DNA of 28,448 nucleotides from Candidatus Thorarchaeota archaeon. GTDB lineage: Archaea > Asgardarchaeota > Thorarchaeia > Thorarchaeales > Thorarchaeaceae. The translations under genes and the position numbers were made by a program. Below, in pieces: positions 3,621-24,435 of the stretch. The notes beneath the pieces were generated by a model. That model was not told the origin of the DNA. It searched no databases and saw only the letters and a list, made by a program, of their open reading frames with translations. Location: contig JBHLRS010000041.1 in the NCBI GenBank assembly GCA_048882325.1, forward strand, positions 1 to 28,448. The letters are read 5' to 3'. The first letter of the stretch is position 1, and each line of letters begins with the position of its first letter.

Positions 3621-3734
3621 TTACCTCTGGAAGGAGGTCCTGTAAACATCGGTCCTGACCTGTGACTTCAGTCTATGAAGCTCCTTTAGATCCGGTTCGG
3701 GCTTTACCTTTTCCCTAAGTTTTGCGAATGCCAT
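3621..3734 (-). CDS. Putative small protein, 37 aa (MAFAKLREKVKPEPDLKELHRLKSQVRTDVYRTSFQR), missed by the ORF track
   Basis: ATG 3734 to TAA 3621, preceded by GTGGTG and an A-run. Followed on the minus strand by hairpin GGTCGT-N9-ACGACC and CTCTTTTT. Fills an otherwise empty intergenic gap. Confidence 0.5.
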   Translation of the reverse strand: MAFAKLREKVKPEPDLKELHRLKSQVRTDVYRTSFQR

Positions 3735-3938
3735 TTTTTTCAAGCACCACGTTTTTGCACAGGAAATTTGGATATCTATCCGCGTGTACACGCTGGTATC
3801 ATTTCAGACCTACAACCAATTGCGATATGTAGAAATCTGAATCATAAGGTTACGAAACTTGCACTATTGGTTGAGATAGAATAGGAGAAGCTTTAATAGG
3901 TCCGGCCAGTACCACAGAATAACGGATGGGGTTCTGTT

Positions 3939-4178
3939 ATGACAGAGGAAACAGAAATTCAAGTCATCAACACCCTGAATGGGCGTAGAAATGTTGTAAT
4001 TGCATCTGACAAGAACATCACATACGGTGAGTTGGTCAGGAGTTACTCTCTTGCACCACCTGAAGTGATGTGGACAGTTCTTGATACTGATGGTAACGAT
4101 ATCACTGATCTTCCTATTGGCGAGCGTGAGTGCGTAGCTCACATCACTCCTGGTCAGGACATCGCTGGTGGGGCGTAA
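3939..4178 (+). CDS. Ubiquitin-like (beta-grasp) modifier with C-terminal GG-A
   Basis: 79 aa with a beta-beta-alpha-beta-beta pattern (EIQVIN / RNVVI / TYGELVRSY / WTVLD / VAHITP), ending DIAGGA*. First gene of an E2-E1-JAMM cluster. Confidence 0.8.
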   Translation: MTEETEIQVINTLNGRRNVVIASDKNITYGELVRSYSLAPPEVMWTVLDTDGNDITDLPIGERECVAHITPGQDIAGGA

Positions 4179-4229
4179 TCTAGCTTTCCAGCCTGCAATA
4201 CACACCTGAAAGAGAAGGGGTGAATTAGG

Positions 4230-4634
4230 ATCTGTCCTATTCACATAGAGCAACTAGAAGAGGCCAAAGAGCTATTTCCTACGCTTAAACCTGTAGCACA
4301 GTCAGGTGACTTTGTATTTGCGGTGACTGTTATTATCGATGGTGTTGTTGGAAAGGGCGACAAGTCGAAAATACCATACCACACGTTCATCGATCTCTCA
4401 AACTACCCAAACATAATGCCTGATATCTTCATTCTGAATATTGAGGATAAGGATATCAAACATGTCAATGTCTTCCATCCGAAGCTGTGTCCTAAGCTCA
4501 ACAAGGAGTATCCCTTCATGTGTTTGGGCAACCTTCGGGATGAACTTCAGAAGTACAGGCACGTCATGGCATTCCTCCAGGGAGTGAAGAGGATTTTGAA
4601 CAATGAGAATTTCAACAGTCCCGCCAGAAAGTGA
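4230..4634 (+). CDS. E2 / UBC-fold ubiquitin-like conjugating enzyme
   Basis: 'NYPNIMPDIF' (YP..PP.v), 'KHVNVF' (HPN-like), 'FMCLG' (catalytic Cys), 'ILNNENFNSPA' (LL..PN..SP/DP). The frame is open from 4224 and adds the helix 'HIEQLEEAKELFP'. Start uncertain: ATC 4230 after GGGGTGA; the ORF track uses GTG 4323. Confidence 0.8.
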   Translation: MCPIHIEQLEEAKELFPTLKPVAQSGDFVFAVTVIIDGVVGKGDKSKIPYHTFIDLSNYPNIMPDIFILNIEDKDIKHVNVFHPKLCPKLNKEYPFMCLGNLRDELQKYRHVMAFLQGVKRILNNENFNSPARK

Positions 4635-4689
4635 AGGCTTATTCTGTCCGAGGCAATCGTGATATTTAGCATGACACAACAGAGGAGAT

Positions 4690-6561
4690 GTGGTTCAAAT
4701 GGTGAAATATTCAGAACGTGTGGACCGTCAAGTGGGACTTGTGTATCAGGAACGAATTGAAGACATGCGTATCTTCATTGATGGATCGGGTCCAGTTATT
4801 GACTATCTCGTAACACACCTTGCGTTCCTGGGCTTTGGTACATCACAGGGATTCATTGCGTTCAAGAAGGATCGGAAAGTCAATGATGAGGATGTGAAGG
4901 GTCAGATTCTGTTAAAGGAAGATGACTTGGGACATCCACTCTGGGAGGCAATCAGAGACCGCGTCAAGGATGAAGTTGCTCCTGACATTAATGTCATTGG
5001 CATAGATGATTTAGAAACTTACAACTATGATGCAGTTGTAGCAACACGAAGTGCAAATAGTGAGCCCGAAGACTCTCTAATACTGCCTCAGAGTGAAACT
5101 CCAATTTGGGCTGTCTGCTCCAAGACCGCTGCATATATGGGTAACGCGAAACCGATTTTTGAACCACATAAGTTTGATGTTCTCACCCCCTCTTTAGCTG
5201 CTGTAGCAGCTGGTTTTGCTGTAACAGAAATAATGCGTCGAAACATGTTGATTCGGCCATCCGAACTGATACAGAGAGACTTGAATCTCAGGGTTGTAAT
5301 CCAGCAACGTGGAATTCTTCAGAAAGTTAGAGAGTCTCAAAAGAAGCGGGAGGGTCTCCCATTCAAGGTCAGAATGAAGATTGGCGGGGAGATGCTAAGA
5401 ACTGAGGTGGAAGAGTTCACGTCCACTACCACCCGATATGTGGGAGGAAAAGTCGAGGAAACTGTGGATGTCGACCCAGACCGAATCATTCTGAAGTGTG
5501 GCTTTCCAAGTGGGTCCTATCTCACACGAATGCTTTCTGACCAGATTGAGATTCTGGATGAAGTTGCACCTGACATGTTCAAACCAACAACTTCCCTTCT
5601 CTTTTCACCCATAGCTGAAACCCGAGTGGAGATGAAGGATGACGCCCTCTACATAATAGACAAGGACGTCGATGTTCCTACTGAGCTGAAGGACAAGACA
5701 GTCTTCTTCTTGGGCGTGGGTGGAATCGGGTCCTGGAGCACTGCATTGTTCAACCTATCTAATACTGAGACCTGTACACTGATTCTCAACGACCATGATG
5801 CAGAGGTTGAGGAACACAATCTGAATCGTCAGATTCTTTTCACACGTGAGTCCATCGGAAAACCAAAAGCTGTTGCTGCTCGCAAAAAACTGATGGAAAT
5901 CAATCCAAACAATCATGTCGTATCGTTGCCCTGGGAGACTGAGATTGGCACTGCAAACAGTATTGTGATGAAGGACTTCATGACTCTGGAGGAGTACGAA
6001 GAGAAGAAGAAGGTCGGAGCTGGAAAGACTCAGGTCGTTGATGGTATTGAGATTCCTCTAGACATCATCCGTGAAGAAGCGGTCCTCGCAGATGCTTTAG
6101 CGAAATCAGACCTACTGATATGCGGACCTGACAACATCAGAACACGATATGTTTCCACACTTCTGGGTAAACTTCTCAAGATTCCTGTCATTAGCGCTGG
6201 GGCTGAGCGTTTCGAGGGGAAGGTCGATCTATTCATGCCGGATGCTGATTGCTATGTATGCAGGTATGGCGAAGGGACTAAGGAACAGAGGGAGGTTGTC
6301 AGTTGCACGGGAAAGATTCCAATTCCCTCCATTGTTTCAACAATTGGAACCATTGGTGCCATGCAGACTGCAGTCGCCATCGCAAGCCTTGCTGAACTAG
6401 ATGCAGAAGTCACTCATTTTGTCCAATACTACCCAAGATATCAGATGTTGGCAAAGTGCGAACCTGGAAAAGACTGTAGACACAAGATGAAAGATTCCTG
6501 TCCCCAACACCTAAACTTACCACCTGAGGAGAGCACATTCGAATTCTTTCCGACCAAGTAA
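4690..6561 (+). CDS. E1 ubiquitin-like activating enzyme (ThiF/MoeB family) with N-terminal degenerate and C-terminal intact adenylation domains
   Basis: N-terminal domain: 'YSERVDRQ...RIFIDGSGPV...LAFLGFG...GQILL...DLG' (degenerate). C-terminal domain: 'VFFLGVGGIGS', 'DHDAEVEEHNLNRQILF...IGKPKA', 'ICGPDNIRTR', 'CYVC', candidate catalytic 'VSCTG', and terminal Cys/His residues. Start GTG 4690 or ATG 4699. Confidence 0.9.
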   Translation: MVQMVKYSERVDRQVGLVYQERIEDMRIFIDGSGPVIDYLVTHLAFLGFGTSQGFIAFKKDRKVNDEDVKGQILLKEDDLGHPLWEAIRDRVKDEVAPDINVIGIDDLETYNYDAVVATRSANSEPEDSLILPQSETPIWAVCSKTAAYMGNAKPIFEPHKFDVLTPSLAAVAAGFAVTEIMRRNMLIRPSELIQRDLNLRVVIQQRGILQKVRESQKKREGLPFKVRMKIGGEMLRTEVEEFTSTTTRYVGGKVEETVDVDPDRIILKCGFPSGSYLTRMLSDQIEILDEVAPDMFKPTTSLLFSPIAETRVEMKDDALYIIDKDVDVPTELKDKTVFFLGVGGIGSWSTALFNLSNTETCTLILNDHDAEVEEHNLNRQILFTRESIGKPKAVAARKKLMEINPNNHVVSLPWETEIGTANSIVMKDFMTLEEYEEKKKVGAGKTQVVDGIEIPLDIIREEAVLADALAKSDLLICGPDNIRTRYVSTLLGKLLKIPVISAGAERFEGKVDLFMPDADCYVCRYGEGTKEQREVVSCTGKIPIPSIVSTIGTIGAMQTAVAIASLAELDAEVTHFVQYYPRYQMLAKCEPGKDCRHKMKDSCPQHLNLPPEESTFEFFPTK

Positions 6562-6581
6562 TAAAACTGGAAGGGTAAAAC

Positions 6582-7964
6582 ATGACACAAGGCTATGACA
6601 TCCCACAAAGAATCACAATTGACGAGTCCGTCTATGAGCAATTCAGAGTCTATACAAAACTCTATGGCGCATCTGAATGGGGCGGTGTTTGCGTAGGGTT
6701 TCAAGAAGGCGATACATTCAATGTTCGAGGTATTGTGCTTCCACCACAGAAGATCCAATCTGGAGCATATTGTGAGTTTAGAAAAGAGGTTTTTCCACTT
6801 GTGACCAAACAGATAATCCGCTTGACATCCGATAAGAAGGAGTTATTCAACTTCAGATCCGGAGCTTGGATTCATACGCATCCCGGTTTTGGAGTCTTCT
6901 TCTCGGGTACTGACTTCAATAGTTTCAGAGACCTGACCAGACTATCTCCTGACTTTCTTGGAATTGTCGTCGATCCCATTAATAATGCAATTAAGGCCTT
7001 CAATGGCAATTTGGTTTCAACCACAGAAGCGGTAACACCAGAAGAACCAAGTGAAGACGCTGAATTAGAGGAGGTAGCGACAAAGTCCACCCCGAAGGAA
7101 GAATTTACTGAAGTTGAGGTCGAGATTGTTCAGCCAGATATCAATGACCCCGTCGAGATGGAGTTCCTTCACGAGTTTCGTAGTGTGATGCAGTCTCCTG
7201 CTTCAGCAAGGGAGATTGGTGACACAGAGCTCATAAACACCTTCATCCCGATGGAAGAGAACGAGTTCAAGCTGAGCACGATGAGCATGAAGGTTGATTA
7301 TCTAGAGGACCTCCTTTCCAGAATGGAATCTCGCCCAGTGTACTCCAAAGACTTGGCTGCTGACTGGAGACGACAATTGATGATTGTTAGAGAGCGTTTT
7401 GGTCTACGTGATGCACTGATACCAACCAGTTTCGTTATCAAACCTGAAGGGATTCTCTACATTTGGCATGAAACAATGTCGCACCTATCTGCTGATCTTG
7501 TTGAGTGGAACACCATTTCTAGCATTGAGGTCAAGATTCGCCTTGAGCAGGATTATAGTAACTATGGCTATGCAACAGTGATCAAAGTCATTGAGTTGGT
7601 GGCAAAACGGAAAAAGTCTGGGTTCTTTGGGAGACGGCCAAAAGACCTCAAATTATTGGTATTAGTGTCTGATAGCCGAGACCTCTACCGTACCGTTGTC
7701 GAGTATTTTCCTAGGGCTACAATGTATCGAGACCTTCCTGTTCTGGAAGAACCCGAAGAGGAAGAGGAAGATGAGACTGAGGCTGAAGAAACAGACGCGG
7801 TCGAATCAGATGATGAGGATAAGGATGAGGACCTTGAGGATGATGTTGATGAGGAAGTAGAAGATGACGAATTCGAGGGTCCTGATGACGATGAAGATGC
7901 TGAAGACAAAGCTGAGTACGAAGAAGATGAAGATAACGACATTGATATGGAGATAGATGAATAG
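6582..7964 (+). CDS. JAMM/MPN+ metalloprotease (Rpn11-like) with C-terminal possible PH-like domain and acidic tail
   Basis: 'EWGG' Glu, 'GAWIHTHPGFGVFFSGTD' (HxH-x7-S-x2-D) and 'GIVVDPI'. C-terminal about 70 residues are mostly D/E. Confidence 0.9.
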   Translation: MTQGYDIPQRITIDESVYEQFRVYTKLYGASEWGGVCVGFQEGDTFNVRGIVLPPQKIQSGAYCEFRKEVFPLVTKQIIRLTSDKKELFNFRSGAWIHTHPGFGVFFSGTDFNSFRDLTRLSPDFLGIVVDPINNAIKAFNGNLVSTTEAVTPEEPSEDAELEEVATKSTPKEEFTEVEVEIVQPDINDPVEMEFLHEFRSVMQSPASAREIGDTELINTFIPMEENEFKLSTMSMKVDYLEDLLSRMESRPVYSKDLAADWRRQLMIVRERFGLRDALIPTSFVIKPEGILYIWHETMSHLSADLVEWNTISSIEVKIRLEQDYSNYGYATVIKVIELVAKRKKSGFFGRRPKDLKLLVLVSDSRDLYRTVVEYFPRATMYRDLPVLEEPEEEEEDETEAEETDAVESDDEDKDEDLEDDVDEEVEDDEFEGPDDDEDAEDKAEYEEDEDNDIDMEIDE

Positions 7965-7999
7965 CAAATCTCGAACTTCTAGATGGGAGATATTGCCTC

Positions 8000-8896
8000 T
8001 TGTCACTACCACGTTGGAATAACATGGTGATAATCCATACTCTAATTGATCATCTAGATAGTGAATTTGATACACTGCGTCTATTCATTAAAAGTCCTGC
8101 AACTGATCCCAGACAAAAAGTAGAGCTCATAGGAGTCAATCATCCCTTCAAGGTCACTCATGAGAGGTGGTCTACACTATACAACCTCGAACTCACTCGA
8201 AACGCCTTCAATCCTCATACTCGACAGGCTCATGCAAACATAATTCTAAACATTGATTTTGAGCGGCGCAACCCATACAGAATAAGCGATTCCTCAACTA
8301 TCTCAGATCTTGATGCAATCTGGGAAGAGAATCCTGAGGTGAAAGACTATCTAGAGCCACATGACTATGTTCAATCTGATGCTGAGGAAATTCGGAATTT
8401 GGCTAACTCAATTGTGGACGATGACCAAGGATTCTGGTCTGCTGTCAGAGCAATTGCACAATGGGTGACTACATACATTGCATATAGCTACGACCTGCAA
8501 CACACAAAGTACAGAGGTGCACTTGAAACACTCAAGTCCCGTCGGGGCACTTGTAGCGATTTCGTACATCTCTTTCTCGCTCTCACACGAAGCAAGAATA
8601 TTCCATCCCGCGCAATAGTCGGGCTGCAACAGCACCGACGGTCATGGAAGATGCACTCATGGGCTGAGGTCTACGATCCCCAGATTGGGTGGGCACCACT
8701 TGATCTTGTGGCACAACCTGTGAACCTGACCCTTGGAAACAGTTACATAGGAATCTCTGCCGGGTATAACTGTGAAGTCCGTTTCTATGCATACTACAGC
8801 AGTGACATGGATGAGTCCAACGCTAAGGTCAATCTCAAGCTCAAACAACACTATTTCATCCGGAACCAGCCTATTGAGATTGAATTCTATGATTGA
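8000..8896 (+). CDS. Transglutaminase-like (papain-fold) enzyme
   Basis: 'RGTCSDFVHLFLAL.RS..IPSR.IVG', 'HSWAEVY' and 'GWAPLD' give an intact Cys-His-Asp triad. Start TTG 8000 or ATG 8024. Confidence 0.9.
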   Translation: MSLPRWNNMVIIHTLIDHLDSEFDTLRLFIKSPATDPRQKVELIGVNHPFKVTHERWSTLYNLELTRNAFNPHTRQAHANIILNIDFERRNPYRISDSSTISDLDAIWEENPEVKDYLEPHDYVQSDAEEIRNLANSIVDDDQGFWSAVRAIAQWVTTYIAYSYDLQHTKYRGALETLKSRRGTCSDFVHLFLALTRSKNIPSRAIVGLQQHRRSWKMHSWAEVYDPQIGWAPLDLVAQPVNLTLGNSYIGISAGYNCEVRFYAYYSSDMDESNAKVNLKLKQHYFIRNQPIEIEFYD

Positions 8897-8902
8897 TTGA
8901 AA

Positions 8903-9604
8903 TCATTCACTAGGTGCTTCTGGTTCTGCCTTTTCCTTCTTTTTCTCCTCGAGTGACCCGCCACACCTTCCACATGTTGTCAACTTTGGTTCCTTGAACA
9001 TCATGATACCGCATTGTGAGCATGTGACAACAACATCGCTGTCCTCACCAACCTCTGGAGAGATTTCGATTTCCCTGTGTTTCATTCTGACCCAGGATGT
9101 TCTTCTACTCAATCCACAAGATGGACATGAGTCTGCCTCCTCATAGAGATCGTTCTTACATCTTGGGCAGGTCCCAAGCTTGTTCTGACGTCCTCTCTGG
9201 ACTCTTCTGAGTCTCGAGAGCTCATCATCATAGCGGCTTGTCAGAGCGCGACCTCCGCTATCTGTAAGGGCTGGGAAGTTGATCCTGGAAAAGATCATAG
9301 CATAGACTGGATTCTTGAAGTCAAAGCAGAGATAGTTAGTTTCAGCCCAGATTCGAGTACTTCCAGAAATATTTCTTTTTGACCAGCCAGAGCTACACTC
9401 TCTATGAGTGGAGATAGGAATCGTCAACCTCCAGATTCCAACGATGAACGGTCCAAAGTGCTCCATCGTATTACCCGGTAACAAACAATGCGGACAAATC
9501 TTCAGGGTCTTAGCACCTAACAGACTTGTACCTCTAAATTTCACTGTTCCTTTTGGATAGATAGGGTGTAGCAAACCAAAGTCTTCTATCTTTAAGTTCA
9601 TCAT
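8903..9604 (-). CDS. Multi-zinc-ribbon protein of unknown function
   Basis: CPHC...HREC module followed by 'FDFKNPVYAMIFSRIN', then CPRC-x10-CPSC and CSQC-x12-CGRC ribbons. Starts 3 bp after the stop of the 875-aa gene. Confidence 0.7.
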   Translation of the reverse strand: MMNLKIEDFGLLHPIYPKGTVKFRGTSLLGAKTLKICPHCLLPGNTMEHFGPFIVGIWRLTIPISTHRECSSGWSKRNISGSTRIWAETNYLCFDFKNPVYAMIFSRINFPALTDSGGRALTSRYDDELSRLRRVQRGRQNKLGTCPRCKNDLYEEADSCPSCGLSRRTSWVRMKHREIEISPEVGEDSDVVVTCSQCGIMMFKEPKLTTCGRCGGSLEEKKKEKAEPEAPSE

Positions 9605-9607
9605 TTC

Positions 9608-12235
9608 TTATTCCACCTCCAGTCCACCACTACCTCTTGGTGGAGTACTCGGACCTCCGTCAGATACATCAAACCCGAGTGCTGACATATCCACTTCGAC
9701 CTCTTCTGGTGCAATGGTCGAAAGGTCAAACGCTTTCACAGGTTTCTCACAGTTGGGACAGACCTGCGCATCCTTTGGGAGTTCAAACGAGCAATAGACA
9801 CAGTAGTCTTTCTCCTCGATGATCTTGTTAGCGATGGCAGTATCCCATCCTCCAAACTCTAGAGCTATGATAACCATCTCTCTTGTGATTACTCCTTGGA
9901 GGAAATGCAGATCCATGAGTTGTTTGAATGCTTTGACAATCATATTCTCAGCAGTCAAGTTCGGGTCCACTCTGACAAGCACCTTTCCGATTGGTTCCTC
10001 TGCCCGCTTCACTGCCAATGCTGCAACCTTCAGATATTCCTGAATGAAGTAGTTACTGTATGTCTGTTCTGTCATCACCGCCATCGGTACAAGTGCTAGA
10101 CTTATTGCAGCCCCAAACACCCAGAACATCGGATTAATCAATACGCCGGTCTGTTTGCTTCCGACGAATGGTAATCTGATTGGGTGGCTCAGAAACTCTT
10201 GCATCACAATCAACGCTGGCAATGGGAATCCAGCAAAAGGTTCAGGAAGTATAACAAAGAGTGACTTCTCGACCGTGCTTTTCAGCAAGTGCCCTGCATC
10301 TATCACATCGCCAATGTCCACTGGGAAGTGCTCCATTCTTTCTAGGAAGTCCTGTCGTCTGATGTTGATTACCAAACCAAGAATCTCCTTCGCAACCGCA
10401 CGCATGTAATCGCGGTCCTCATTAGAAAGCGATAACCCCTGATTATCAGCCATGAGTGTAAGCTTATAGTAAGCATGCTTTGCTGACTCTAGTACTGCCT
10501 TAGCAGCCTCCGTCTTACGTCGATAGGTTATGTTGTCGAATCCTGGGGTGCCTTTGAAGATTCTTATAGTCCTCTCAAAATCATCATCTATGATTGTGAG
10601 TGCCTGTTCAGTGATTAGTCTTGGTTCGAGCGTTCCCTTGGTTTCCTTGATCACATCGAGTAGTGCTGCCACATATGCATGATGTTCTTTTGCACCTTCA
10701 GTAGTCCTGTTGACCAGACTCCACTTCTTGAGCCAATCAACAATCTTTCTCACACTCTTCTTATCACCATCGGTTTCCAGAAGCTCTGCTTGCAACGTCA
10801 GCATGAACTGCTGCAGGTTCTTGTCATTGCCATGTGTGACGAGAAGCTTGTTAATCGTCTTCTCCATGTAATTAATCACAAGATCAAATGGTGCCCGATA
10901 GAGCTTCAGTAACGGGCTCACAGCGCCAAATTCTTTTTTCCGAATCTTCTCCATGATGACCGTGCTGAGCGCATATCTGAAGATACCTCGAGTGCCAGGT
11001 TTGGAATGAAGCTTGTCCTGAATCTCCTCTGGGACCTTATTTACAAACGACATTATTGTAACAAGATCGATCTTCTTCTCCTGATATTCCCTGAGAACAC
11101 TCATCACACCAACCTGATTGATGCTGATGTATTCAGGGGTTTCTCGGATGCGACTCTTCAGTCTGTTCATACTGTAAGTCAAGATGCCCTGTGGAATTTC
11201 ATAGTCGTAGAATTTCTTGTGGTCCTTCTTTTCCACGAAGAGTAGTTTATTGAAGGTCTCCTCGTCCTCAAGCTTCGTCTTGTTCTTCTGAATGAGTGCA
11301 GCCATGTTGAAACGCTTGTCAAACTGCACACTCTCGAGACCATCAGTGTCCAAAGGCATCGGTCTGCTGGCATACCCTGCACCAATGAGAGAGATGATGA
11401 TTTTCTCCCATTCCTCCTCCGGTCTCTCAATAATCTCTGTTATCTTAATCCCACTGAGTATGCCATCGAACAACAGCATCTTCTCATAGCCTTTACCGAC
11501 ATTCCGTAGTTCTATGAAGAAGTCCATCTTGTACTCGAAGCTGAATGTTTTGAAGAGGGCTGCAATCCAAGACCGAGACATCGCTGAGTTGTCCCACGAG
11601 CTCATTAACACCTGGGATAGATACGTGATGAACTCTTCATGTAGCTTGGTCTTGGGCTCTAGCTCCTGAATAAGATTTGACATCTTGTTTCTGTCTTCTT
11701 GAATTAACCCCCTTGAGGTATGAGCTTGGGTTCCAAGCCACGCGACTTGCCAGCACATCATTCTGAAATCATTGTCTTTAAGTTTAAGAGCGAACTGCTT
11801 TGACTCCATTCTCTGCGTGACGGCATCACTCAACCATGAAAGGAATGGAAACTCCTTGTGCTCAGCCAGTTCCAAGCACATGCCCATCAGGGTCTTCTCC
11901 GCCCCCTTCTCGAAGCTCTCTGGGAACTCGTTCTCGACGAGGTGTAGGAGGATTGGAGCGGGGTCTCTACGTTTGCCTCCCTTCTTCTTGTATGAGGCAA
12001 AGATTGTGGCGATATACCAGAGTGGTGAGTTCTCCTCGACCTCATAGTCCTCTACGTCACCCTTTTCCTTACTTTTCGCAATGAATCGTTTTACAACCTC
12101 TCTCTTCCTTTTGATTTGCCCAGGAAGGTATATTTTTTGTCGATAGATGAGGATGATTATAACAACAGCAATAGCAGCTAGAGAAATACCTAGATTTACT
12201 AGACTTCCAAAGATCGGAATTTGCATCATTAACAT
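9608..12235 (-). CDS. Large membrane-anchored alpha-helical protein with C-terminal zinc ribbon
   Basis: N-terminal TM helix (LGISLAAIAVVIIILIY), long helical body, a second hydrophobic segment (FWVFGAAISLALVPMAV), and CVYC-x10-CPNC near the C-terminus. Confidence 0.7.
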   Translation of the reverse strand: MLMMQIPIFGSLVNLGISLAAIAVVIIILIYRQKIYLPGQIKRKREVVKRFIAKSKEKGDVEDYEVEENSPLWYIATIFASYKKKGGKRRDPAPILLHLVENEFPESFEKGAEKTLMGMCLELAEHKEFPFLSWLSDAVTQRMESKQFALKLKDNDFRMMCWQVAWLGTQAHTSRGLIQEDRNKMSNLIQELEPKTKLHEEFITYLSQVLMSSWDNSAMSRSWIAALFKTFSFEYKMDFFIELRNVGKGYEKMLLFDGILSGIKITEIIERPEEEWEKIIISLIGAGYASRPMPLDTDGLESVQFDKRFNMAALIQKNKTKLEDEETFNKLLFVEKKDHKKFYDYEIPQGILTYSMNRLKSRIRETPEYISINQVGVMSVLREYQEKKIDLVTIMSFVNKVPEEIQDKLHSKPGTRGIFRYALSTVIMEKIRKKEFGAVSPLLKLYRAPFDLVINYMEKTINKLLVTHGNDKNLQQFMLTLQAELLETDGDKKSVRKIVDWLKKWSLVNRTTEGAKEHHAYVAALLDVIKETKGTLEPRLITEQALTIIDDDFERTIRIFKGTPGFDNITYRRKTEAAKAVLESAKHAYYKLTLMADNQGLSLSNEDRDYMRAVAKEILGLVINIRRQDFLERMEHFPVDIGDVIDAGHLLKSTVEKSLFVILPEPFAGFPLPALIVMQEFLSHPIRLPFVGSKQTGVLINPMFWVFGAAISLALVPMAVMTEQTYSNYFIQEYLKVAALAVKRAEEPIGKVLVRVDPNLTAENMIVKAFKQLMDLHFLQGVITREMVIIALEFGGWDTAIANKIIEEKDYCVYCSFELPKDAQVCPNCEKPVKAFDLSTIAPEEVEVDMSALGFDVSDGGPSTPPRGSGGLEVE

Positions 12236-12528
12236 CTTATCAACCCTCTAATTTAATGAAACCTGACTTGCAGTGTAGTATACGAATATGCCTGAAATCG
12301 CCCGAAAGCATATCCCAACCCCAATTGCGTATCAAAGATAACGCAACCATTAGACAACAAAGCCGACTATTAAGGTTTGACGCTTCCCTTTTCACCGGTC
12401 AAACCCTCTTCTCCAATTATATTCCTGTCCTTACTAGAAAAATAATAAAGGGAATCAAACCACGCCCGAGTGTTCCAGGGGTCCTAAGAGGGAACTAGAA
12501 CCCCAAAGTGACTGGGTAGTGACAACAT

Positions 12529-15500
12529 ATGTCGGAACTTCCATGGACAAGCACCCTTCAGGTGAATAGAATGTATGACCTTCTAGACGAGGGTCTGGTA
12601 GTACTGGATAACTTGGGTGTTATTGTCCACTCAAACCAAGCATTCGCAGAATCTCTACAGTATTCGACCGGGGATCTGTTGGATTACCGCTTTGATGATC
12701 TCGTTGCAGATGAACAGAAGGGTGTTTTTTCCCCACATCTGATAGCGGATGCAAGTCGATCAATTCAACTGACCTTGATGAGCAGGGATGGTGAACGGCT
12801 AGGAAAGAAAGTGAAGGCTTTAGGTCTCATTGAAGATGAGTTGCCTAAGGGATTCTTCCTCATAATAACCGACAGTGAAGAGGTTCATCCTGACTTTGAG
12901 AAAATTATATCGGGCGCACATCTCAAAATGGTTACGATTGACCGCGACCTCAACATTACTTATGTAAATCCAGCCTTCAGCGAAACTGCTGGTAAGATTA
13001 TCGGTACTCCAGTTTTAATGGGTGTCGAGTCTCAATTTCGCGAGGAGTTCAGATTAAAACTTGAGAAAGTCATGAGAGAGGGCACAAACCAACAGATGGA
13101 GTTCTCTGAAACTTTGGAGGGACGAAGAACCACTTGGCATGAGCTCAGGATTGGCGCAATTCGTGATGGTCCGGATATTGTTGGTGCAGTGATTGCAGGT
13201 TATGAAATAACGGACAGAGTCTTGGCTATGCGAGCACTGGGAGAGAGCGAGGGGAAGTTTAGAGGTGTTTTTGAACATGCAAATGATGGAATCATACTAG
13301 CAGATGAAGAAGGTCGAATAATTGCAATTAATGCCGCTCAAGAGAAGTTCTTTGGCATTAATCGTGAAGATGTAATTGGGTTGCCTCTCTGGGAAGTTCA
13401 AGCTTCGATCTTATCAGAGAATAAACAAACCTCCGAGCATCAGATGTATCTCCAAGAGGCCCTCTCCTCATTCTTCAAGATGGGGACAGCACCATGGTTA
13501 GAGAAAACGATACATGGTAAATTCACCCACCCTCATGATGGGACTCAGAAGACTTTCAGCCAGACAGCATTCCGGATACCCTCTACTAAGGGCTTTATGC
13601 TCTGTTCCTTTACCTGGGATACAACCGAACAGACACGTCTTGAAGAGGAACGAAAGGCATCTGAACACAGATACAAGGCTCTCTTTGATGAAAACAATGA
13701 TGGCGTTTTCATTCTGAGTCTAAGTGGAAAATTCCTCGAAGTAAATGCAAGAGCATCTGAACTACTTGGCTACGACCGTCCTGAGGACCTTGTTGACCTC
13801 CCATTCTCAGAAACTATTGTTGAAGGTGAAAGAGCTGAAAGCATCAAACAGTTTGAGAGGATAATGGGCGGAGCTAAAGTGCCCATTTTTGAACGCACGC
13901 TTCTGAAACGTGATGGTACTCATGTCCTTGCTGAGCTGAGTGTTTCACTTGTCTTGGACAGGGATGGTAATCCGCAACATGTTCAGACCATTGTGAGAGA
14001 TATCACTGAGAGAAAAGTAACTCAAGCAGCTCTGGATGAATCTCGTGAAAGATACGAGCTCGCATTGCAAGGCGCAGACCTTGGTGTATGGGATTGGAAT
14101 GCTGAAGCTGACGAGATGATCTTCTCAAAAAGATGGGCTGAGATGCTTGGTTATTCAATTGAAGAAATCGAGCCCAACTATGCTGGGTGGGAAAAACTAG
14201 TTCATCCTGAGGATCTTAAACTCATGGAAGAACGATGGAACTCGCATGTTGATGGCATTACTCCTTTCTATTCCTCCGAACACAGAATGCGTACAAAGAC
14301 TGGTGGATGGAAATGGGTTTTGGAACGCGGAAAAGTAGTAGAGTGGAATGAGAAGGGAGGAACGAGGCGAGCTACTGGGACTCTACTTGACATCACTGAA
14401 CGAAAAGTGATTGAGAAAGCACTTGAACAGAGTGAGCAGAAGTATCGTAACCTATTGGAGAACATTCCTCAAAGGGTATTTTACAAAAACCGAGAATCGA
14501 TTTACGTTGCATGTAATCCAGCATTTGCAAGGGACTTAGAGAAGGTTCCAACTGAAATCATAGGGAAGACGGATTTTGACCTGTATCCGATGGAACTAGC
14601 TGAGAGCTTCAGAACCACAGACAAGGAGGTTCTAGAAAACTTACAAACATGGGAGAGTGACCAAGAATACATCACAAGCGGGGAACCTCGGATTGCACAC
14701 ATTGTGAAAGCTCCGGTGAGAGATGACGAAGGCACGATAGTTGGTATTCTTGGTATATTCTGGGACATTACTGAAAATACCCTCTCAGCACAAGCTTTGA
14801 GGGCTTCAGAAACGAAGTATCGTAATCTCGTAGAACAGTCTTTGATGGGTATAGCCATCGTTCCTCGCGGCTTTGAGAGTATTGCTTTTGTCAATCCTAC
14901 ATTGTGCAATTTACTGGGCTATTCGGAAGAAGAAATCTTGGCAATGAGTCCTGAACAGGTCAGTGCATTAGTTCATAAAGATGATGTGGTTCTCATTGAC
15001 GATTACCTGAACAATCGACTACAAGACAAGCAACCTGGTGAGGCACTCCAAGTGAGAATGATCCATAATGATGGTTCAGAGATTTGGGTTGACTTCTCTG
15101 CTGGTGCCATCGAATATGGTGAAACTCAAGCTGTTCAGGTTACGGTTGTTGACATCACGAAAAGAATCGAAGCCGAGCTTGAGGTTCTTCGGGATCGCCA
15201 AGTGTTCCGCACAATAGCTGAAGGTGCAATCCAGGCAAAGGACACGGGAGAGTTAAGTCAAGAGATTTTGAAAGGACTTGTCAGTTCGCTCGAATTTGAT
15301 TTCGGAACTTTCCGGCTTTATGACGAGAAAACGAATACACTCCGATATTCTGCTTTGTTTGGTGTTGAGATATCTGATACTCGTCCTGAACTTCCAGTGA
15401 CTCAGGAATTCAGCGAGGAATACATCATTGTCAGAACCGCTCTTACAAAGATACCAGAATTCATCTCCGATATAGAGGTAGAGATTGGGGATAAACCCTA

Positions 15501-16821
15501 TTTGAATCGACTCAAGAAATTCAATGCTGCATCAGTGGTCGCATATCCAATCTTAGATGACGCAAACGACCTTCTTGGGATTCTAAGCCTAGTGACACGT
15601 ACTCAACGAACGTTTACTGATGGTGACAGAGAGATTTTTTCTGCCATTGTGAATATGCTTGGATCTGTGCTTGAACGGAAAAAAGCTGAGAAAGCACTGC
15701 AAATCAGTGAACGCAGATATCGTGAACTTCTCAGGAACATCTCTGAAGGTATGGCTATCATCGATTTGGATGAGAAGATCCTCTTTGTGAACAAAGCCTT
15801 CGCTGAGATGTTGGATTACACGCAGAGTGAACTTGTCGGGATGAATATCCTTGATATAATCGCGGAAGAAGATAAAGAGTTGATCCTTGATCAGACCAAA
15901 ATACGACGAGAAGGGGTGAGCTCGTCGTATACACATCGTTTTGTCAGAAAGGATGGAGAACATAGAATTGTCAGAGCATCTGCAGTTCCCTCTAGAGATG
16001 ATGATGGACAGGTTGACGGGACCATCGCGGTTGTTACTGACATTACCGAAAGAATTCAGAAGGACCGCGAAATCAAGAAACTCAATGAGGAGCTCGCACA
16101 AAGGGTTGAAGAAAGAACTGCAGAGTTGGCTGCAGCAAACAAAGAGCTGGAAGCATTCTCATACTCCGTTTCTCACGACCTCCGGGCACCTCTCAGGACT
16201 ATAGACGGATTTAGTCAGGCATTGTTGGAGGACTATTCTGATTCTATTGATGATACAGGACATGATTTTCTTAGAAGAGTGCGGTCTGCAGCGACTCATA
16301 TGGGTTCATTGATTGAGGACCTGCTTGTATTGTCGAGAGTTACTCGAACGGAGATGGAGCGAGTTGATGTTGACCTCTCATTAATCGCAAGTGAAATCAT
16401 TGGTGATTTGCAAGAAATAGACCCAGACCGACAGGTGCACATCAGAATCTCTGATGAGGTGCATGTACGTTGTGATCAACGATTGATCAAGCTTGTTCTC
16501 CAAAATCTTCTCGATAATGCTTGGAAATTCACAAGTAAGATTCCGGATGCCTTAATTGAGTTTGGCTGTCAAGATCAAGATGGAGAATCTGTCTTTTATG
16601 TCCGAGATAATGGTGCTGGATTCAATATGGACTACAGTGACAAACTATTCGTTCCATTTCAGCGACTGCATCAAGCTGAGGAATTCGAAGGCTCTGGAAT
16701 CGGACTGGCTACTGTGCAACGTATTATAAACCGTCATGGTGGTAGAGTATGGGCAGAGAGTGTTGTTGACGGAGGCTCAACATTCTACTTTACCATCCCT
16801 GAAAGGAGGAGCAAGGAATAA
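12529..16821 (+). CDS. Cytoplasmic sensor histidine kinase with about 8 PAS domains and a GAF domain
   Basis: Repeated PAS/PAC motifs (SE.KYR.L.E ... DITERK), a GAF-like segment, H-box 'LEAFSYSVSHDLRAPLR', N-box 'NLLDNAWKFT', and G boxes 'DNGAGF', 'GSGIGLA'. No TM segments seen. Confidence 0.95.
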   Translation: MSELPWTSTLQVNRMYDLLDEGLVVLDNLGVIVHSNQAFAESLQYSTGDLLDYRFDDLVADEQKGVFSPHLIADASRSIQLTLMSRDGERLGKKVKALGLIEDELPKGFFLIITDSEEVHPDFEKIISGAHLKMVTIDRDLNITYVNPAFSETAGKIIGTPVLMGVESQFREEFRLKLEKVMREGTNQQMEFSETLEGRRTTWHELRIGAIRDGPDIVGAVIAGYEITDRVLAMRALGESEGKFRGVFEHANDGIILADEEGRIIAINAAQEKFFGINREDVIGLPLWEVQASILSENKQTSEHQMYLQEALSSFFKMGTAPWLEKTIHGKFTHPHDGTQKTFSQTAFRIPSTKGFMLCSFTWDTTEQTRLEEERKASEHRYKALFDENNDGVFILSLSGKFLEVNARASELLGYDRPEDLVDLPFSETIVEGERAESIKQFERIMGGAKVPIFERTLLKRDGTHVLAELSVSLVLDRDGNPQHVQTIVRDITERKVTQAALDESRERYELALQGADLGVWDWNAEADEMIFSKRWAEMLGYSIEEIEPNYAGWEKLVHPEDLKLMEERWNSHVDGITPFYSSEHRMRTKTGGWKWVLERGKVVEWNEKGGTRRATGTLLDITERKVIEKALEQSEQKYRNLLENIPQRVFYKNRESIYVACNPAFARDLEKVPTEIIGKTDFDLYPMELAESFRTTDKEVLENLQTWESDQEYITSGEPRIAHIVKAPVRDDEGTIVGILGIFWDITENTLSAQALRASETKYRNLVEQSLMGIAIVPRGFESIAFVNPTLCNLLGYSEEEILAMSPEQVSALVHKDDVVLIDDYLNNRLQDKQPGEALQVRMIHNDGSEIWVDFSAGAIEYGETQAVQVTVVDITKRIEAELEVLRDRQVFRTIAEGAIQAKDTGELSQEILKGLVSSLEFDFGTFRLYDEKTNTLRYSALFGVEISDTRPELPVTQEFSEEYIIVRTALTKIPEFISDIEVEIGDKPYLNRLKKFNAASVVAYPILDDANDLLGILSLVTRTQRTFTDGDREIFSAIVNMLGSVLERKKAEKALQISERRYRELLRNISEGMAIIDLDEKILFVNKAFAEMLDYTQSELVGMNILDIIAEEDKELILDQTKIRREGVSSSYTHRFVRKDGEHRIVRASAVPSRDDDGQVDGTIAVVTDITERIQKDREIKKLNEELAQRVEERTAELAAANKELEAFSYSVSHDLRAPLRTIDGFSQALLEDYSDSIDDTGHDFLRRVRSAATHMGSLIEDLLVLSRVTRTEMERVDVDLSLIASEIIGDLQEIDPDRQVHIRISDEVHVRCDQRLIKLVLQNLLDNAWKFTSKIPDALIEFGCQDQDGESVFYVRDNGAGFNMDYSDKLFVPFQRLHQAEEFEGSGIGLATVQRIINRHGGRVWAESVVDGGSTFYFTIPERRSKE

Positions 16822-17276
16822 TGTCTTCAAAGAAGATTTTACTTGTCGAAGACAATACTGATGATGTTCTATTGACATTAAGAGCTCTTCAGCGCGCAAA
16901 CATTCTAAATGAGGTTGTAGTTGCTCGGGATGGAGCAGAGGCCTTCGATTATCTCACCTCTGAGGGACAATATGCTGGAAGAGATTCAGCTGATATCCCA
17001 GTAGTGGTTCTTCTTGACTTGAAAATGCCGCGAATGGGTGGTCTAGAGTTTCTTGGTAAGATACGTAAAATCAATTCTCTCAAGTTTCTCCCAGTCGTAA
17101 TCCTAACCTCAAGCAATGAGGACCGTGACATCTGTGAGAGCTACAATTTGGGAGCCAATTCTTACATTCAGAAGCCTGTTGATTTTGACCAATTTGTACA
17201 AGCCATTCGAACACTTGGCCTTTACTGGTTAGTTCTGAATGTATGCCCCAAAGGAGGTCCCGAATCCTGTGAGTGA
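16821..17276 (+). CDS. Single-domain response regulator (Rcp1-like)
   Basis: 'ILLVEDN.DD..LT', 'LLDLKMP', 'VVILTSS', 'GANSYIQKPVDF'. TAATG stop/start overlap with the kinase. Confidence 0.95.
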   Translation: MSSKKILLVEDNTDDVLLTLRALQRANILNEVVVARDGAEAFDYLTSEGQYAGRDSADIPVVVLLDLKMPRMGGLEFLGKIRKINSLKFLPVVILTSSNEDRDICESYNLGANSYIQKPVDFDQFVQAIRTLGLYWLVLNVCPKGGPESCE

Positions 17277-18696
17277 AGAGGTTCGGATTCTTCTCATTGA
17301 AGACTCTCAAGATGATGCGATTCTCATTGAACGTGTTATCACAAAGGGAGAGCTTGATGCTAGTATCAGGAGGGTCAGTACAGGGGAGGAGATGAAACAG
17401 GCTCTAAATGAAGGGGATTGGGATGCAGTCTTATGTGACTACATGATGCCCAAGTTCAGTATCCCTGATGCAATGAAGGAAATTGAACTTAGAGGTCTGG
17501 ATCTGCCATTCATCATTGTATCAGGTACAATTTCCGATGAAGTCGCAGTGGAGATGATGCAGGCTGGTGCTCATGACTATCTGACTAAGAACAATCTAAG
17601 TCGTCTTGTACCTGCTATCAAACGTGAGATTGGTGAAGCTGAACAGAGAAAGAAAAGACGGACTGCAGAACAAGCACTCCGTGAGAGTGAAAGGAAACAT
17701 CGAACATTGGTTGAGTCTCTGAGTGATACTGTGTTTATTCTTGAGGAAGATGGAGAGGTCTCAGAGTTTTTCTCAAAATCCGGTATCATTCCTGGTGTTA
17801 GTTCAGGGAAATATGTTGGAAGAAAGATATTTGATCTCTTGCCAGCTGAAACTGCTCGCAACTACACTGATGCTGTAAAGTGGGTTCTAGAAACCGGTGA
17901 AATTCAAAGTTTCGAACACCCTCTCAACTTTGTGGATGATCGGACGTGGGTTTCAGTAATCTTCAGTCTTCATGAGGATGGAAAACATGTGGTTGTTGTC
18001 ATGCGTGACGTGTCTGCGCTCAAGAAAGCTGAAGAGGATGCTCGGGCGGCCCATAATGTGGCTTTACTCTATCAAGACATAACTGGGCATGATATCCGAA
18101 ACTACTTGCAGGCAATTATGATTGCATCGGATTTACTGTACTCTGATGAAACAGACACAACACGAGTTACTCTTCTCGATCACATCAATGACTCGGTGGT
18201 AGAATGCAGTGAACTCATTGCCTCTGTACAGTCAACAGCTACTCTGCTGTCGACACCACTTGAGAAAGTTTCTCTTGATTTCTCACTCAAAAGCTGTATT
18301 GATGTTTTCAAGAAGGATCACATGACCGTAAAAATAGAACAGAAGTTAGCAAAGACTCAAGCAGTCATCCTTGCAGATCGGTTTATTCACCATCTGATCC
18401 TGAATATCCTTTCTAATGCTGAAAAGCACAATGAGAATGAAACGAAGACCATCTGGATTCAGCTCACTGAAGAAGATGGAGGATATGTGCTAACAATCGC
18501 AGATAATGGGCCTGGAATCTCTGATGACATGAAGCGGAATCTCCTAAATCCTGAACGCCGTTCTGGAGGTGTAGGTATACATCAGTGTATGCAGATTACT
18601 AGTAAGTATCGCGGGACATTCGGGATTTTTGACCGAGTTGAAGGAGACTACACCCAAGGTGCAAAGTTCAGAGTCTGGCTTCCGAAAGGGAGTTGA
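17269..18696 (+). CDS. Hybrid REC-PAS-histidine kinase
   Basis: REC domain 'ILLIEDS...CDYMMP...GAHDYLTK', PAS, H-box 'GHDIRNYLQ', 'NAEKH', 'DNGPGI'. GTG 17269 after AAGGAGGT is preferred to 17239. Confidence 0.9.
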   Translation: MSEEVRILLIEDSQDDAILIERVITKGELDASIRRVSTGEEMKQALNEGDWDAVLCDYMMPKFSIPDAMKEIELRGLDLPFIIVSGTISDEVAVEMMQAGAHDYLTKNNLSRLVPAIKREIGEAEQRKKRRTAEQALRESERKHRTLVESLSDTVFILEEDGEVSEFFSKSGIIPGVSSGKYVGRKIFDLLPAETARNYTDAVKWVLETGEIQSFEHPLNFVDDRTWVSVIFSLHEDGKHVVVVMRDVSALKKAEEDARAAHNVALLYQDITGHDIRNYLQAIMIASDLLYSDETDTTRVTLLDHINDSVVECSELIASVQSTATLLSTPLEKVSLDFSLKSCIDVFKKDHMTVKIEQKLAKTQAVILADRFIHHLILNILSNAEKHNENETKTIWIQLTEEDGGYVLTIADNGPGISDDMKRNLLNPERRSGGVGIHQCMQITSKYRGTFGIFDRVEGDYTQGAKFRVWLPKGS

Positions 18697-21413: not shown

Positions 21414-22307
21414 ATGTCAGAAAAAATCGGACAACTTGACTTAGTATTCGTCGTAGATAATACCGGGTCAATGGGACCTTATATTGCAAATGTCAAGTCA
21501 AAGATTCTAGAAATTATTCGTACAATCAAAAAGGAGGAGATGGTTCACAGACTTCGTGTGGGTCTTGTGTCTTATAGAGACCACCCGCCTGAGGAAACAA
21601 CATACGTCACCCAGAAATATGAACTGACATCGGATACATCCAAGATTGAGAGTTATGTTATGCAGATGGAAGCATCCGGTGGAGGTGATGGTCCTGAAGC
21701 AGTCTCAACTGCTCTTCAGGTCATGAACAGAATGGAGTTCCTCAATGAATCAGCAAAGATAGCCGTCCTTATTGGTGATGCACCACCACATGGTGTAGAG
21801 GATGGAGACTGTTGGCCACAGGGAACACCTGATGGTGCCAAATGGACCGAGGAGGCAAATAGAGCATTTGGCAAGGGTATTGTTATTCACACAGTTGGTT
21901 GCTTCCCTGAGATTGCAAACTATCAGAAAGGTGTTGAAACCTATGAGAAGATTGCAGCTGACTCACAAGGAAGATTCATTCCACTGGAAAAGGCAGAGCT
22001 CCTTGTCAATATCATCACTGGACTAGCTGTCGAAGAGATTGATAAACTAGCTATACAGAAGTCAATCCTCGAAGACTTGGGGGTCAGCATGGAGGACTTC
22101 CCTGCAGATGAGGAGTTCACTGAAGACAAGATCTCTGAAATCGTCGCAAGGGTTCAGGCGAAGGGCGTCAAGAAACGGGCCATGGCTGAGAGAGCCGCAA
22201 GTGCTCCTGCAGCAGCAAGCGAAGACGTTGTGATGGAAGAGCAAGATATTGATGAGGCAGACATCCGAGAAGCTGTTCGGCAGTTAAAGTCAAAGTCAGG
22301 CAGATAA
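21414..22307 (+). CDS. Stand-alone von Willebrand factor A (vWA) domain protein
   Basis: MIDAS-like 'DLVFVVDNTGSM', 'GLVSYRDH', 'ASGGGDGPEA', 'LIGDAPPHG'. Ribosome site GAGGAG. Confidence 0.9.
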   Translation: MSEKIGQLDLVFVVDNTGSMGPYIANVKSKILEIIRTIKKEEMVHRLRVGLVSYRDHPPEETTYVTQKYELTSDTSKIESYVMQMEASGGGDGPEAVSTALQVMNRMEFLNESAKIAVLIGDAPPHGVEDGDCWPQGTPDGAKWTEEANRAFGKGIVIHTVGCFPEIANYQKGVETYEKIAADSQGRFIPLEKAELLVNIITGLAVEEIDKLAIQKSILEDLGVSMEDFPADEEFTEDKISEIVARVQAKGVKKRAMAERAASAPAAASEDVVMEEQDIDEADIREAVRQLKSKSGR

Positions 22308-23664: not shown

Positions 23665-23674
23665 CAAGATTTTT

Positions 23675-23706
23675 GGGAGGAGATATTCCTCCCACACCTT
23701 CTTTTT
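23675..23706 (+). terminator. Hairpin plus T-tract terminator
   Basis: GGGAGGA-gatat-TCCTCCC followed by ACACCTTCTTTTT, 10 nt after the stop at 23664. Confidence 0.6.
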
Positions 23707-23945
23707 CAATGATGTCATCTTACAGAGTCAGAATGAGGTTGGTGGGCAGTGCCGATCAGGCAAATGGTAGGAGGGGGGGAGTTATGAGGGCATGTTACAG
23801 AAAATGTTGCCCAATCAGCCGCCTGTCCACCGTTCTAGCATGGGACAATGTTCCTAATAAGCGTCACCATCTAACGCTCCTATTCGAGAAATTTCTGATT
23901 CCGGTAGCAAAAGGCTATTCAGTGTGCGAAATTCAGCAAAAAAAC

Positions 23946-24392: not shown

Positions 24393-24416
24393 TGAAACCC
24401 AAGCACTTATTAACTA

Positions 24417-24432
24417 ATTAACAATTGTTAAT
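24417..24432. promoter_or_regulatory. Perfect palindrome ATTAACAATTGTTAAT immediately upstream of the second OsmC gene
   Basis: 16-bp perfect inverted repeat ending 3 nt before ATG 24436. 24417-24435 is identical to 26101-26119. Confidence 0.7.
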
Positions 24433-24435
24433 AAT

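Follow-up and report, generated by a model that had tools for sequence, protein, structure and literature searches.

Operons for ubiquitin-like protein conjugation have been described in archaea, where the canonical operon of Caldiarchaeum subterraneum and of Loki-, Odin- and Heimdallarchaeota encodes ubiquitin, E1, E2, a small RING protein and Rpn11 (PMC5654768, PMC6043591), and in bacteria, where BilABCD systems of Types I and II encode a ubiquitin-like modifier (Ubl), E2, E1 and a JAB/JAMM protease without an E3 (10.1101/2023.09.26.559546; 10.1101/2023.09.04.556158). Among Asgard archaea, Thorarchaeota seem to lack ubiquitin (PMC9192718). Here, we describe a seven-gene cassette in a contig of 28,448 bp (JBHLRS010000041.1, analysed over its entire length and hereafter called the window) from a metagenome-assembled genome (MAG) of a Candidatus Thorarchaeota archaeon (GCA_048882325.1; 3.6 Mb, 93% complete); homologues of the window proteins carry Thorarchaeota labels. 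Five of the genes form a stand-alone Ubl-E2-E1-JAMM-transglutaminase set whose predicted enzymes look active from their conserved residues, and two convergent genes encode a zinc-ribbon protein and a membrane protein. Based on sequence comparisons and structure models, this accessory cassette probably represents an E3-independent Ubl conjugation pathway. No published description of this system was found in a literature search.

Components of the predicted conjugation machinery

The 79-amino acid (aa) Ubl ends in IAGG-A. Its GG is invariant in 17 homologues, in which it is followed by 0-2 residues of any kind, as is characteristic of Ubl precursors whose tail can be discarded. The AlphaFold2 model (predicted local distance difference test score, pLDDT, 76.5) has the beta-beta-alpha-beta-beta arrangement of a beta-grasp. 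The top Foldseek match to this model was BilA of the bacterial Bil system (8tyx_A, 22% identity), followed by ubiquitin, ISG15, SUMO and NEDD8, and in a second structural comparison (VIA) BilA (21-24% identity), UFM1 (Z 7.8-8.1), ISG15, ubiquitin, SUMO and the Ras-binding domains of Raf were tied at Z 7.4-8.7. Judged from the model, the fold of the modifier is settled and its subfamily is not. The Ubl had no match among Pfam, NCBIfam and PADLOC models, and its profile gave only chance-level matches to the sequences of solved structures. No Lys is invariant among the homologues and the window copy holds a single one, so that chain building looks unlikely.

Proteins homologous to the E2 candidate have 125-152 aa. 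In 19 close homologues H80-x-N82, K87 and C100 are invariant, with C100 in the context C-L/I-G-N and a chain end of N-x-x-S-P-A-R; in a wider family of 65 members H80 is still invariant, at least 90% retain N82 and C100, and K87 is not kept. A search of the E2 profile against 1.84 billion representatives gave 85 clusters at E ≤1e-3. The AlphaFold2 model conforms to the UBC fold, in which a helix at the N-terminus precedes a meander of four strands, the active-site loop and a further helix, and in an exhaustive structural alignment against 48,161 chains the best 50 were all UBC, UEV or RWD proteins; their Z values (5.5-7.7) are middling, and the fold assignment rests on the uniformity of this top-50 list. 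Foldseek likewise returned only UBC, UEV and RWD proteins (probability 0.9-0.99, E ~1e-2). By hhalign, the wider profile aligned with canonical Asgard UQ_con E2s over 113 columns (E 2.4e-4), placing C100 on the catalytic Cys; the narrow profile against a single canonical E2 was not significant. The active-site loop is ~10 residues longer than that of the classical UBC motif. Pfam models for UQ_con and prokaryotic E2s were blank for the 19 close and 65 wider sequences, apart from one weak UEV match (0.0049), NCBIfam and PADLOC gave nothing beyond one unrelated PADLOC match, and the profile matched the sequences of solved structures only at chance level. We conclude from the conserved residues and the predicted fold that this protein is an E2 of the UBC type, though a divergent one, and that C100 is its putative active site. 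In addition, a 2462-aa protein among the searched representatives (P0099) matches positions 22-70 of the E2 profile, which correspond to the beta-meander, sixteen times (E 2.9e-21).

The E1 is numbered here from GTG 4690, although the identical database protein begins at ATG 4699. It matches Pfam ThiF (1.8e-35) and contains an adenylation domain with the glycine motif, the Arg, Lys and Asp residues and the zinc CxxC: G342, G344, G345, G347, D368, R380 (in EEHNLNRQ), K393, D481, C521 and C539 are invariant, and C524, the partner of C521 in the CxxC, is kept in at least 90%. The invariant C539, in V-V-S-C-T-G, belongs to a short crossover loop and follows the CxxC by 15 residues, which is where ThiF, UbaA and UBA5 carry their thioester Cys. 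An hhalign comparison of the N-terminal and C-terminal halves gave a probability of 93% (E 2.4e-7), with GxGGxG, NLNRQ and PKA lost in the N-terminal half, and the E1 profile also aligns with adenylation domains of Uba1 in its N-terminal part. As read from its sequence, the E1 is a fused pseudo-dimer whose single chain joins a dead adenylation domain to a live one. A helical CYS/SCCH domain and a ubiquitin-fold domain (UFD) were not found in the E1 sequence, and the chain ends ~50 residues past the adenylation core. Strand 3 is followed by an insertion of ~50 residues, and the chain carries a conserved C-terminal NPFxFF motif, which may recruit E2 much as the C-terminal peptide of UBA5 binds its E2. 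The best solved relatives were ThiF, MoeB, Uba1 and UBA5 (1.4e-15 for UBA5, with higher scores for ThiF and MoeB), and BilD was not among the best 60 solved matches.

In the JAMM protein, the motif residues E32 and H98-x-H100-x7-S108-x2-D111 are invariant in three orthologues. Its Pfam JAB score lies below the cut-off (0.0067; 16.7 bits against 22.5 bits), and in PADLOC it matches only generic JAB and E1-E2 models (JAB 1.2e-5). The nearest solved structures are Rpn11 (9e-6), CSN5 (~1e-5) and the Rpn11-like protein of Caldiarchaeum (6fjv, 1.5e-4), and not prokaryotic JAB proteins. Residues 223-387 are conserved, and a low-confidence ESM Atlas model of this part weakly resembles bacterial PH domains (TM-score 0.35-0.41); Asp and Glu make up 69% of the last 70 residues.

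The last gene of the operon encodes a protein with a strong match to Transglut_core (PF01841; 3.5e-23, 82.4 bits against a cut-off of 23), in which C185, H219 and D235 are invariant among three orthologues despite an identity of only 41%. Among solved structures its sole relative is 3isr, a putative cysteine protease from a bacterium. From its conservation, this transglutaminase-like protein is a real member of the cassette and a predicted thiol enzyme; our guess is that it would act on Ubl conjugates as an amide- or isopeptide-bond hydrolase or as a transamidase.

An earlier note on this DNA, made from its sequence alone, had proposed five co-oriented genes for a Ubl, E2, E1, JAMM protease and transglutaminase, with a modifier not close to ubiquitin and no RING E3. 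The folds, family matches and catalytic residues agree with the five assignments; the AlphaFold2 model of the 79-aa protein and all its structural matches are ubiquitin-like, and the Cys-containing E2 candidate has structural neighbours of the UBC type only. The modifier is not recognised by the Pfam ubiquitin model, which is blank in the Thorarchaeota-family carriers of the cassette. No RING was detected in the cassette by Pfam or by a Cys-pattern check of its open reading frames (ORFs), and the zinc proteins near the operon are of the ribbon type with sequential CxxC...CxxC pairs.

Distribution, insertion site and associated genes

A scan of genome contigs found four loci and a metagenome scan two contigs of ~1 kb, and the gene context described here rests on four genomes: the window genome (G000), a genome of the same genus (G005), one of another genus (G121) and a Loki-type genome (G281). 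A further genome of the same genus, G013, is without the system. The order Ubl-E2-E1-JAMM-transglutaminase, followed by the convergent genes for proteins of 233 aa and 875 aa, is common to G000, G005 and G121; the JAMM and transglutaminase genes of G121 keep this order at only 36-41% identity to those of the window. All seven genes share one phyletic pattern, being present in 3 of 86 genomes of the family. An E1 search of 24 other genomes of the same genus found an orthologue only in G005, searches with the E2 family singled out the same three carriers, and operon-type orthologues of the transglutaminase within the family were confined to them, the other genomes having only a generic paralogue of ~280 aa.

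The same-genus genome G013 provides an empty site. Nucleotide homology between the window and G013 ends at 3733 and restarts at 12527; in G013 the genes for PadR, TPR and PAS kinase proteins are adjacent, with ~250 bp in place of the cassette. This implies that a block of 8.8 kb with exactly seven genes is present or absent as a whole. Thus, the five-gene unit of the earlier note had to be enlarged to seven, as the two convergent genes co-occur with the operon and are missing together with it at the G013 site. Neither terminal repeats of at least 10 nt nor an integrase were found at the cassette.

Across the Asgard archaea, the E2-like family was present in 5 of 400 species genomes. The E1 family comprises ~40 clusters at 90% identity, in which every named cluster is from Asgard archaea (Thor, Hod, Hel, Loki and Heimdall). 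Homologues of E1, E2 and Ubl sit on equal-sized contigs, in two cases with adjacent locus tags or consecutive accessions, and these linked homologues span MAGs labelled Thor-, Hel-, Hod-, Loki- and Heimdallarchaeota; one Heimdallarchaeaceae MAG has two E2-like genes and an E1 with consecutive accessions. The E1 of G281 is 45% identical to that of the window, and the G281 contig is broken inside this gene.

A second E2 paralogue (69% identity, TTG start) is unlinked to the cassette (G000:C28:27534-27923, L026:9538-9912; G005:C27, L027:6604-6978). As a single gene it runs opposite to its neighbours, a lipoate-protein ligase gene on one side and a 2-oxoacid dehydrogenase E2/E1beta/E1alpha operon on the other. 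Among the 400 Asgard genomes searched, it was seen in G000, G005 and G020, in the last of these on a contig of 2.6 kb.

With regard to canonical ubiquitin genes, the Pfam models for UQ_con (PF00179) and ubiquitin (PF00240) were blank in G000, G005, G020 and G121, and the same models matched in G281 (two UQ_con E2s and four ubiquitins) and in G065 (others). These blanks in the Thorarchaeota-family carriers fit the statement that Thorarchaeota seem to lack ubiquitin. G281 also carries a canonical operon of E1 (411 aa), UQ_con E2 and JAB, and both systems coexist in this genome. Together with the lack of a RING, these results bear out the proposal that the cassette is distinct from the canonical Asgard and Caldiarchaeum operon.

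The 233-aa protein encoded next to the operon gave only weak zinc-ribbon matches below cut-off (Pfam DZR, 4.3e-5) in searches of Pfam, NCBIfam and PADLOC. It was considered as a RING and rejected, having four sequential CxxC pairs and no His. Within the family, the distribution of its orthologues coincides with that of the operon (3 of 86 genomes), with synteny in G005 and G121, and we regard it as a candidate for an adaptor or for a partner that binds the Ubl.

The 875-aa protein has one strong transmembrane (TM) helix at residues 12-30 and no match in Pfam, NCBIfam or PADLOC; among the 86 family genomes its orthologues were found only in G000, G005 and G121. In G005 the orthologue forms the C-terminal part of a 3889-aa ORF (L050:1318-12987, G005:C12), which is either a true fusion or an assembly artefact and whose first ~3000 residues contain eleven SBBP beta-propeller repeats (2e-103), DUF7948 and TSP3 repeats. 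If this ORF is real, the helical body and zinc ribbon would be cytoplasmic and within reach of the Ubl enzymes. The C-terminal module recurs in two large proteins encoded just upstream of Ubl-E2-E1 in G281 (33-44% identity, E 1e-11 to 1e-12; best match 44% identity over 54 aa). The 875-aa protein is a candidate target or scaffold, and its co-occurrence with the operon lends support to the membrane association that the earlier note had guessed. Its C-terminal GG was discarded as a feature, as it is not conserved in G121.

Partial paralogues of the 875-aa protein with 31% identity were observed elsewhere (G000:C51:1-1050; G005:C15:953-2200). The stretch beside Ubl-E2-E1 in G281 (G281:C142, L017:873-8754) encodes a RagA/Arf-like GTPase, a membrane protein with four AN1 zinc fingers (1.1e-34), two small proteins with a TM helix plus zinc ribbon, and two paralogous proteins of ~730 aa with the module of the 875-aa type.

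The positions of the cassette and its features are given in Table 1. The five operon genes lie on the plus strand within 3939-8896 with intergenic gaps of 20-56 nt. A promoter scan with a sigma-70 model and a terminator scan were at background level, as expected for an archaeon.

Table 1. Cassette features and their positions in the window
Feature	Positions	Strand	Basis
Cassette, approximate limits	3734..12526	.	8.8-kb segment absent from same-genus site
Ubl, 79 aa, pro-form ending GG-Ala	3939..4178	+	AlphaFold2 beta-grasp, structural matches, invariant GG
UBC-fold E2-like protein, 136-aa open frame; probable catalytic Cys100 at 4521-4523	4224..4634	+	Structural search, conservation
E1 gene, 623 aa	4690..6561	+	ThiF
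E1, predicted inactive N-terminal adenylation domain, ~residues 1-310	4690..5619	+	hhalign of N half against C half
E1, predicted active adenylation domain, ~residues 320-623; probable catalytic Cys539 at 6304-6306	5647..6561	+	ThiF 1.8e-35
JAMM/MPN+ protease, 460 aa: JAMM 1-~140, possible PH-like part ~223-387, 70-residue acidic tail	6582..7964	+	
Transglutaminase-core (papain-like) thiol enzyme, 298 aa; Cys185 at 8552-8554	8000..8896	+	Transglut_core
233-aa protein, two sequential zinc ribbons, convergent with operon	8903..9604	-	DZR, co-occurrence
875-aa protein: N-terminal TM helix, large helical body, C-terminal zinc-ribbon module	9608..12235	-	

Directly after the cassette (window 12529-18696), there are genes for a 1430-aa multi-PAS/GAF histidine kinase, a stand-alone receiver and a receiver-PAS-kinase hybrid. 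The PAS/GAF kinase is a conserved flank that is also found in G013, and hence lies outside the cassette. Further downstream (21414-22307 and 23673-24870), the window encodes a VWA-domain protein and two adjoining OsmC-like proteins, for which no link to the cassette was seen. The ORFs of the window that were scanned include no SMC-like gene.

Proposed pathway and alternative explanations

The analysis establishes the folds, catalytic residues, operon structure, co-occurrence and indel of the cassette. In the pathway that we favor, and of which we infer every chemical step, the JAMM protease would trim the one-residue tail of pro-Ubl and expose Gly-Gly, after which the pseudo-dimeric E1 would adenylate the Ubl and form a thioester with it on Cys539 of the short crossover loop. 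The Ubl would then be handed to Cys100 of the small UBC-fold E2, which would put it directly on target lysines, and the JAMM protease would also take the tag off. For the roles of adaptor and of target or scaffold, the strongest candidates are the zinc-ribbon protein and the membrane protein's cytoplasmic body, respectively, which would place the pathway at the membrane.

Several observations weigh against this pathway. The cassettes seen comprise three complete copies and one truncated copy, and two of the three are from one genus; because the carriers are related, the co-occurrence of the genes amounts to few independent events. In G281, where the contig breaks inside the E1 gene, a search for operon-type JAMM and transglutaminase orthologues gave generic domain matches only. 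The sequence link between the E2 candidate and UBC proteins is weak (hhalign probability 44%), and in its AlphaFold2 model (pLDDT 74) residues 81-103 of the active-site loop fall below pLDDT 50. Furthermore, the E2 reading frame has no canonical start before residue 34: the first ATG, GTG or TTG is GTG 4323, and a start there would remove helix 1 and part of strand 1.

With respect to the last point, the residues P-I-H-(I/V/M)-(E/A)-Q upstream of the first ATG/GTG/TTG are conserved in the three orthologous operons, an ATC or ATT occurs within two codons before P-I-H in each of them, and the Loki-type and paralogous E2 copies begin with M-P-V at that position. It is therefore likely that the E2 starts at an Ile codon, either ATC 4230 or ATT 4224. 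The JAMM gene of G005 begins with an Ile codon where the window has ATG, and Ile-codon initiation may be a habit of this lineage. The corresponding sites are at window 4224-4325, L014:3841-3865 and L025:9790-9830 for E2, and at L014:6209 for the JAMM gene of G005.

Among the alternatives, the one that retains most weight, although we consider it rather unlikely, is an antiviral defence like BilABCD, in which the Ubl would be put on virus proteins upon infection and block assembly. The parts list of Ubl, E2, E1 and JAB equals that of Bil, the E1 has the architecture of inactive plus active adenylation domain described for BilD (10.1101/2023.09.26.559546), BilA heads the Foldseek list of the Ubl, and the occurrence is patchy, both across the Asgard species genomes and at one locus within a genus. 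On the other hand, the PADLOC models for BilA, BilB, BilC and BilD were blank except for a generic BilD stretch of 66 residues (2.4e-5) in the E1, and no PADLOC model fits the Ubl, the E2, the transglutaminase or the neighbours. The flanking genes, encoding a PadR regulator, a TPR protein, PAS kinases and NAD synthase, do not form a defence island; no relatives of the E2 or Ubl were found in IMG/VR viral contigs; and the cassette has dedicated, co-occurring membrane and zinc-ribbon proteins, which Bil systems are without. Considering also the place of BilD outside the best 60 matches of the E1, the Rpn11/CSN5-like JAMM and an E2 that aligns in register with canonical Asgard UBC enzymes, the Bil-like branch suggested by the earlier note is not shown. 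For an antiviral role as such, the patchy occurrence is the only point in favor.

A more far-reaching version of our preferred pathway is that the cassette is a receptor-coupled Ubl signalling module of Asgard origin, in which a private E1-E2-JAMM set would tag or untag the cytoplasmic body of a single-pass surface protein (one that in G005 bears a beta-propeller ectodomain of 3000 residues), with the transglutaminase-fold enzyme as a new E3-like transamidase or second deconjugase. We regard this as a long shot. If it is true, the dispersed or tandem extra E2 paralogues would mark the start of E2 diversification outside eukaryotes.

Even less credence can be given to an archaeal relative of the UFM1 pathway (UBA5-UFC1-UFM1-UfSP), in which the transglutaminase-fold enzyme would take the role of the papain-like UfSP. 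UBA5 is a homodimer that carries its Cys on a short crossover loop, lacks a UFD and has a conserved short C-terminal motif. The cassette E1 shares the short-loop Cys, the absence of a UFD and the short C-terminal motif, UBA5 is among its better solved matches, the Ubl has a short removable tail, and UFM1 is within the tie of its best structural matches. However, ThiF and MoeB outscore UBA5, which lacks the fusion into a pseudo-dimer; the C-terminus of the Ubl is GG and not VG; the E2 keeps H-x-N; and the Pfam Ufm1 model (PF03671) was blank in G000, G005 and G121 at E up to 0.1. Asgard Ufm1 homologues have indeed been reported from structure models, but are said to span nine major clades (PMC12962969), whereas the cassette family is rare.

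It is very improbable that the genes form a sulfur-carrier or peptide-modification system (ThiS/MoaD/SAMP- or MccB-like) instead of one for protein conjugation. The top sequence matches of the E1 are ThiF, MoeB, UbaA, PaaA and MccB, but all NCBIfam scores are far under the equivalog cut-offs, the genome has a gene of the ThiF/MoeB type (344 aa) at another place, neither a rhodanese domain nor a biosynthetic neighbour is present, and the cassette includes as integral components a JAMM protease and a UBC-fold protein whose Cys is invariant. Finally, membership in the canonical Asgard/Caldiarchaeum system, to which the Rpn11-like JAMM and the register of the E2 alignment would point, is refuted by the blank UQ_con and ubiquitin models in a group said to be without ubiquitin, the canonical operon that G281 holds besides its cassette-type system, the extra dead domain of the E1 and the lack of a RING, and has next to no chance of being correct.

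Significance and comparison with known systems

If the favored pathway operates, some Thorarchaeota hold a complete Ubl pathway that standard models have missed, and the cassette would join the canonical Asgard operon and the SAMP system, which has no E2, as a third type of E1-E2 system in archaea. It combines several eukaryote-like traits, including a fused dead-plus-live E1, an Rpn11-like JAMM and a UBC-type E2 with a second unlinked paralogue, and adds E2 and Ubl families that current Pfam models do not detect. Being small and self-contained, with a candidate built-in target, the set appears suited to the study of substrate choice in E3-less conjugation. Considering its rarity, the cassette is more informative about how diverse and mobile such systems are than about the direct ancestors of eukaryotic ubiquitin.

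The canonical archaeal operon shares with the cassette a GG-ending beta-grasp modifier, a ThiF-type E1, a UBC-fold E2 with Cys, an Rpn11-like JAMM able to mature the modifier and an Asgard host. In contrast to that operon, the cassette has no RING, its modifier and E2 escape the ubiquitin and UQ_con models, its E1 is longer by the dead domain (623 against 411 aa), and it is found in ~1% of Asgard species genomes whereas the canonical operon is widespread. With the UFM1 pathway it has in common an E1 without CYS domain and UFD but with a short conserved C-terminal motif, a modifier with removable tail, a short E2 without the last UBC helices and a thiol enzyme of the papain superfamily; it differs in having no sequence match to Ufm1, a GG end, a fused E1, a JAMM protease and no UFL1-like E3. 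The transglutaminase-like enzyme shares the core domain and Cys-His-Asp triad of its superfamily (PF01841; 3isr), but this branch has its own N-terminal domain of ~130 residues.

Similar to BilABCD Types I and II, the cassette is an operon of Ubl, E2, E1 and JAB/JAMM without an E3, with a single-chain E1 of inactive and active adenylation domains and a pro-form Ubl that a JAMM protease could trim. Unlike BilABCD and Uba1, its E1 is without the helical CYS domain and has the Cys on a short loop. Its JAMM is of the Rpn11/CSN5 type with a large C-terminal extension and acidic tail, and, in an archaeal host, the cassette adds a transglutaminase-like enzyme, a zinc-ribbon protein and a membrane protein to the components of the bacterial system.

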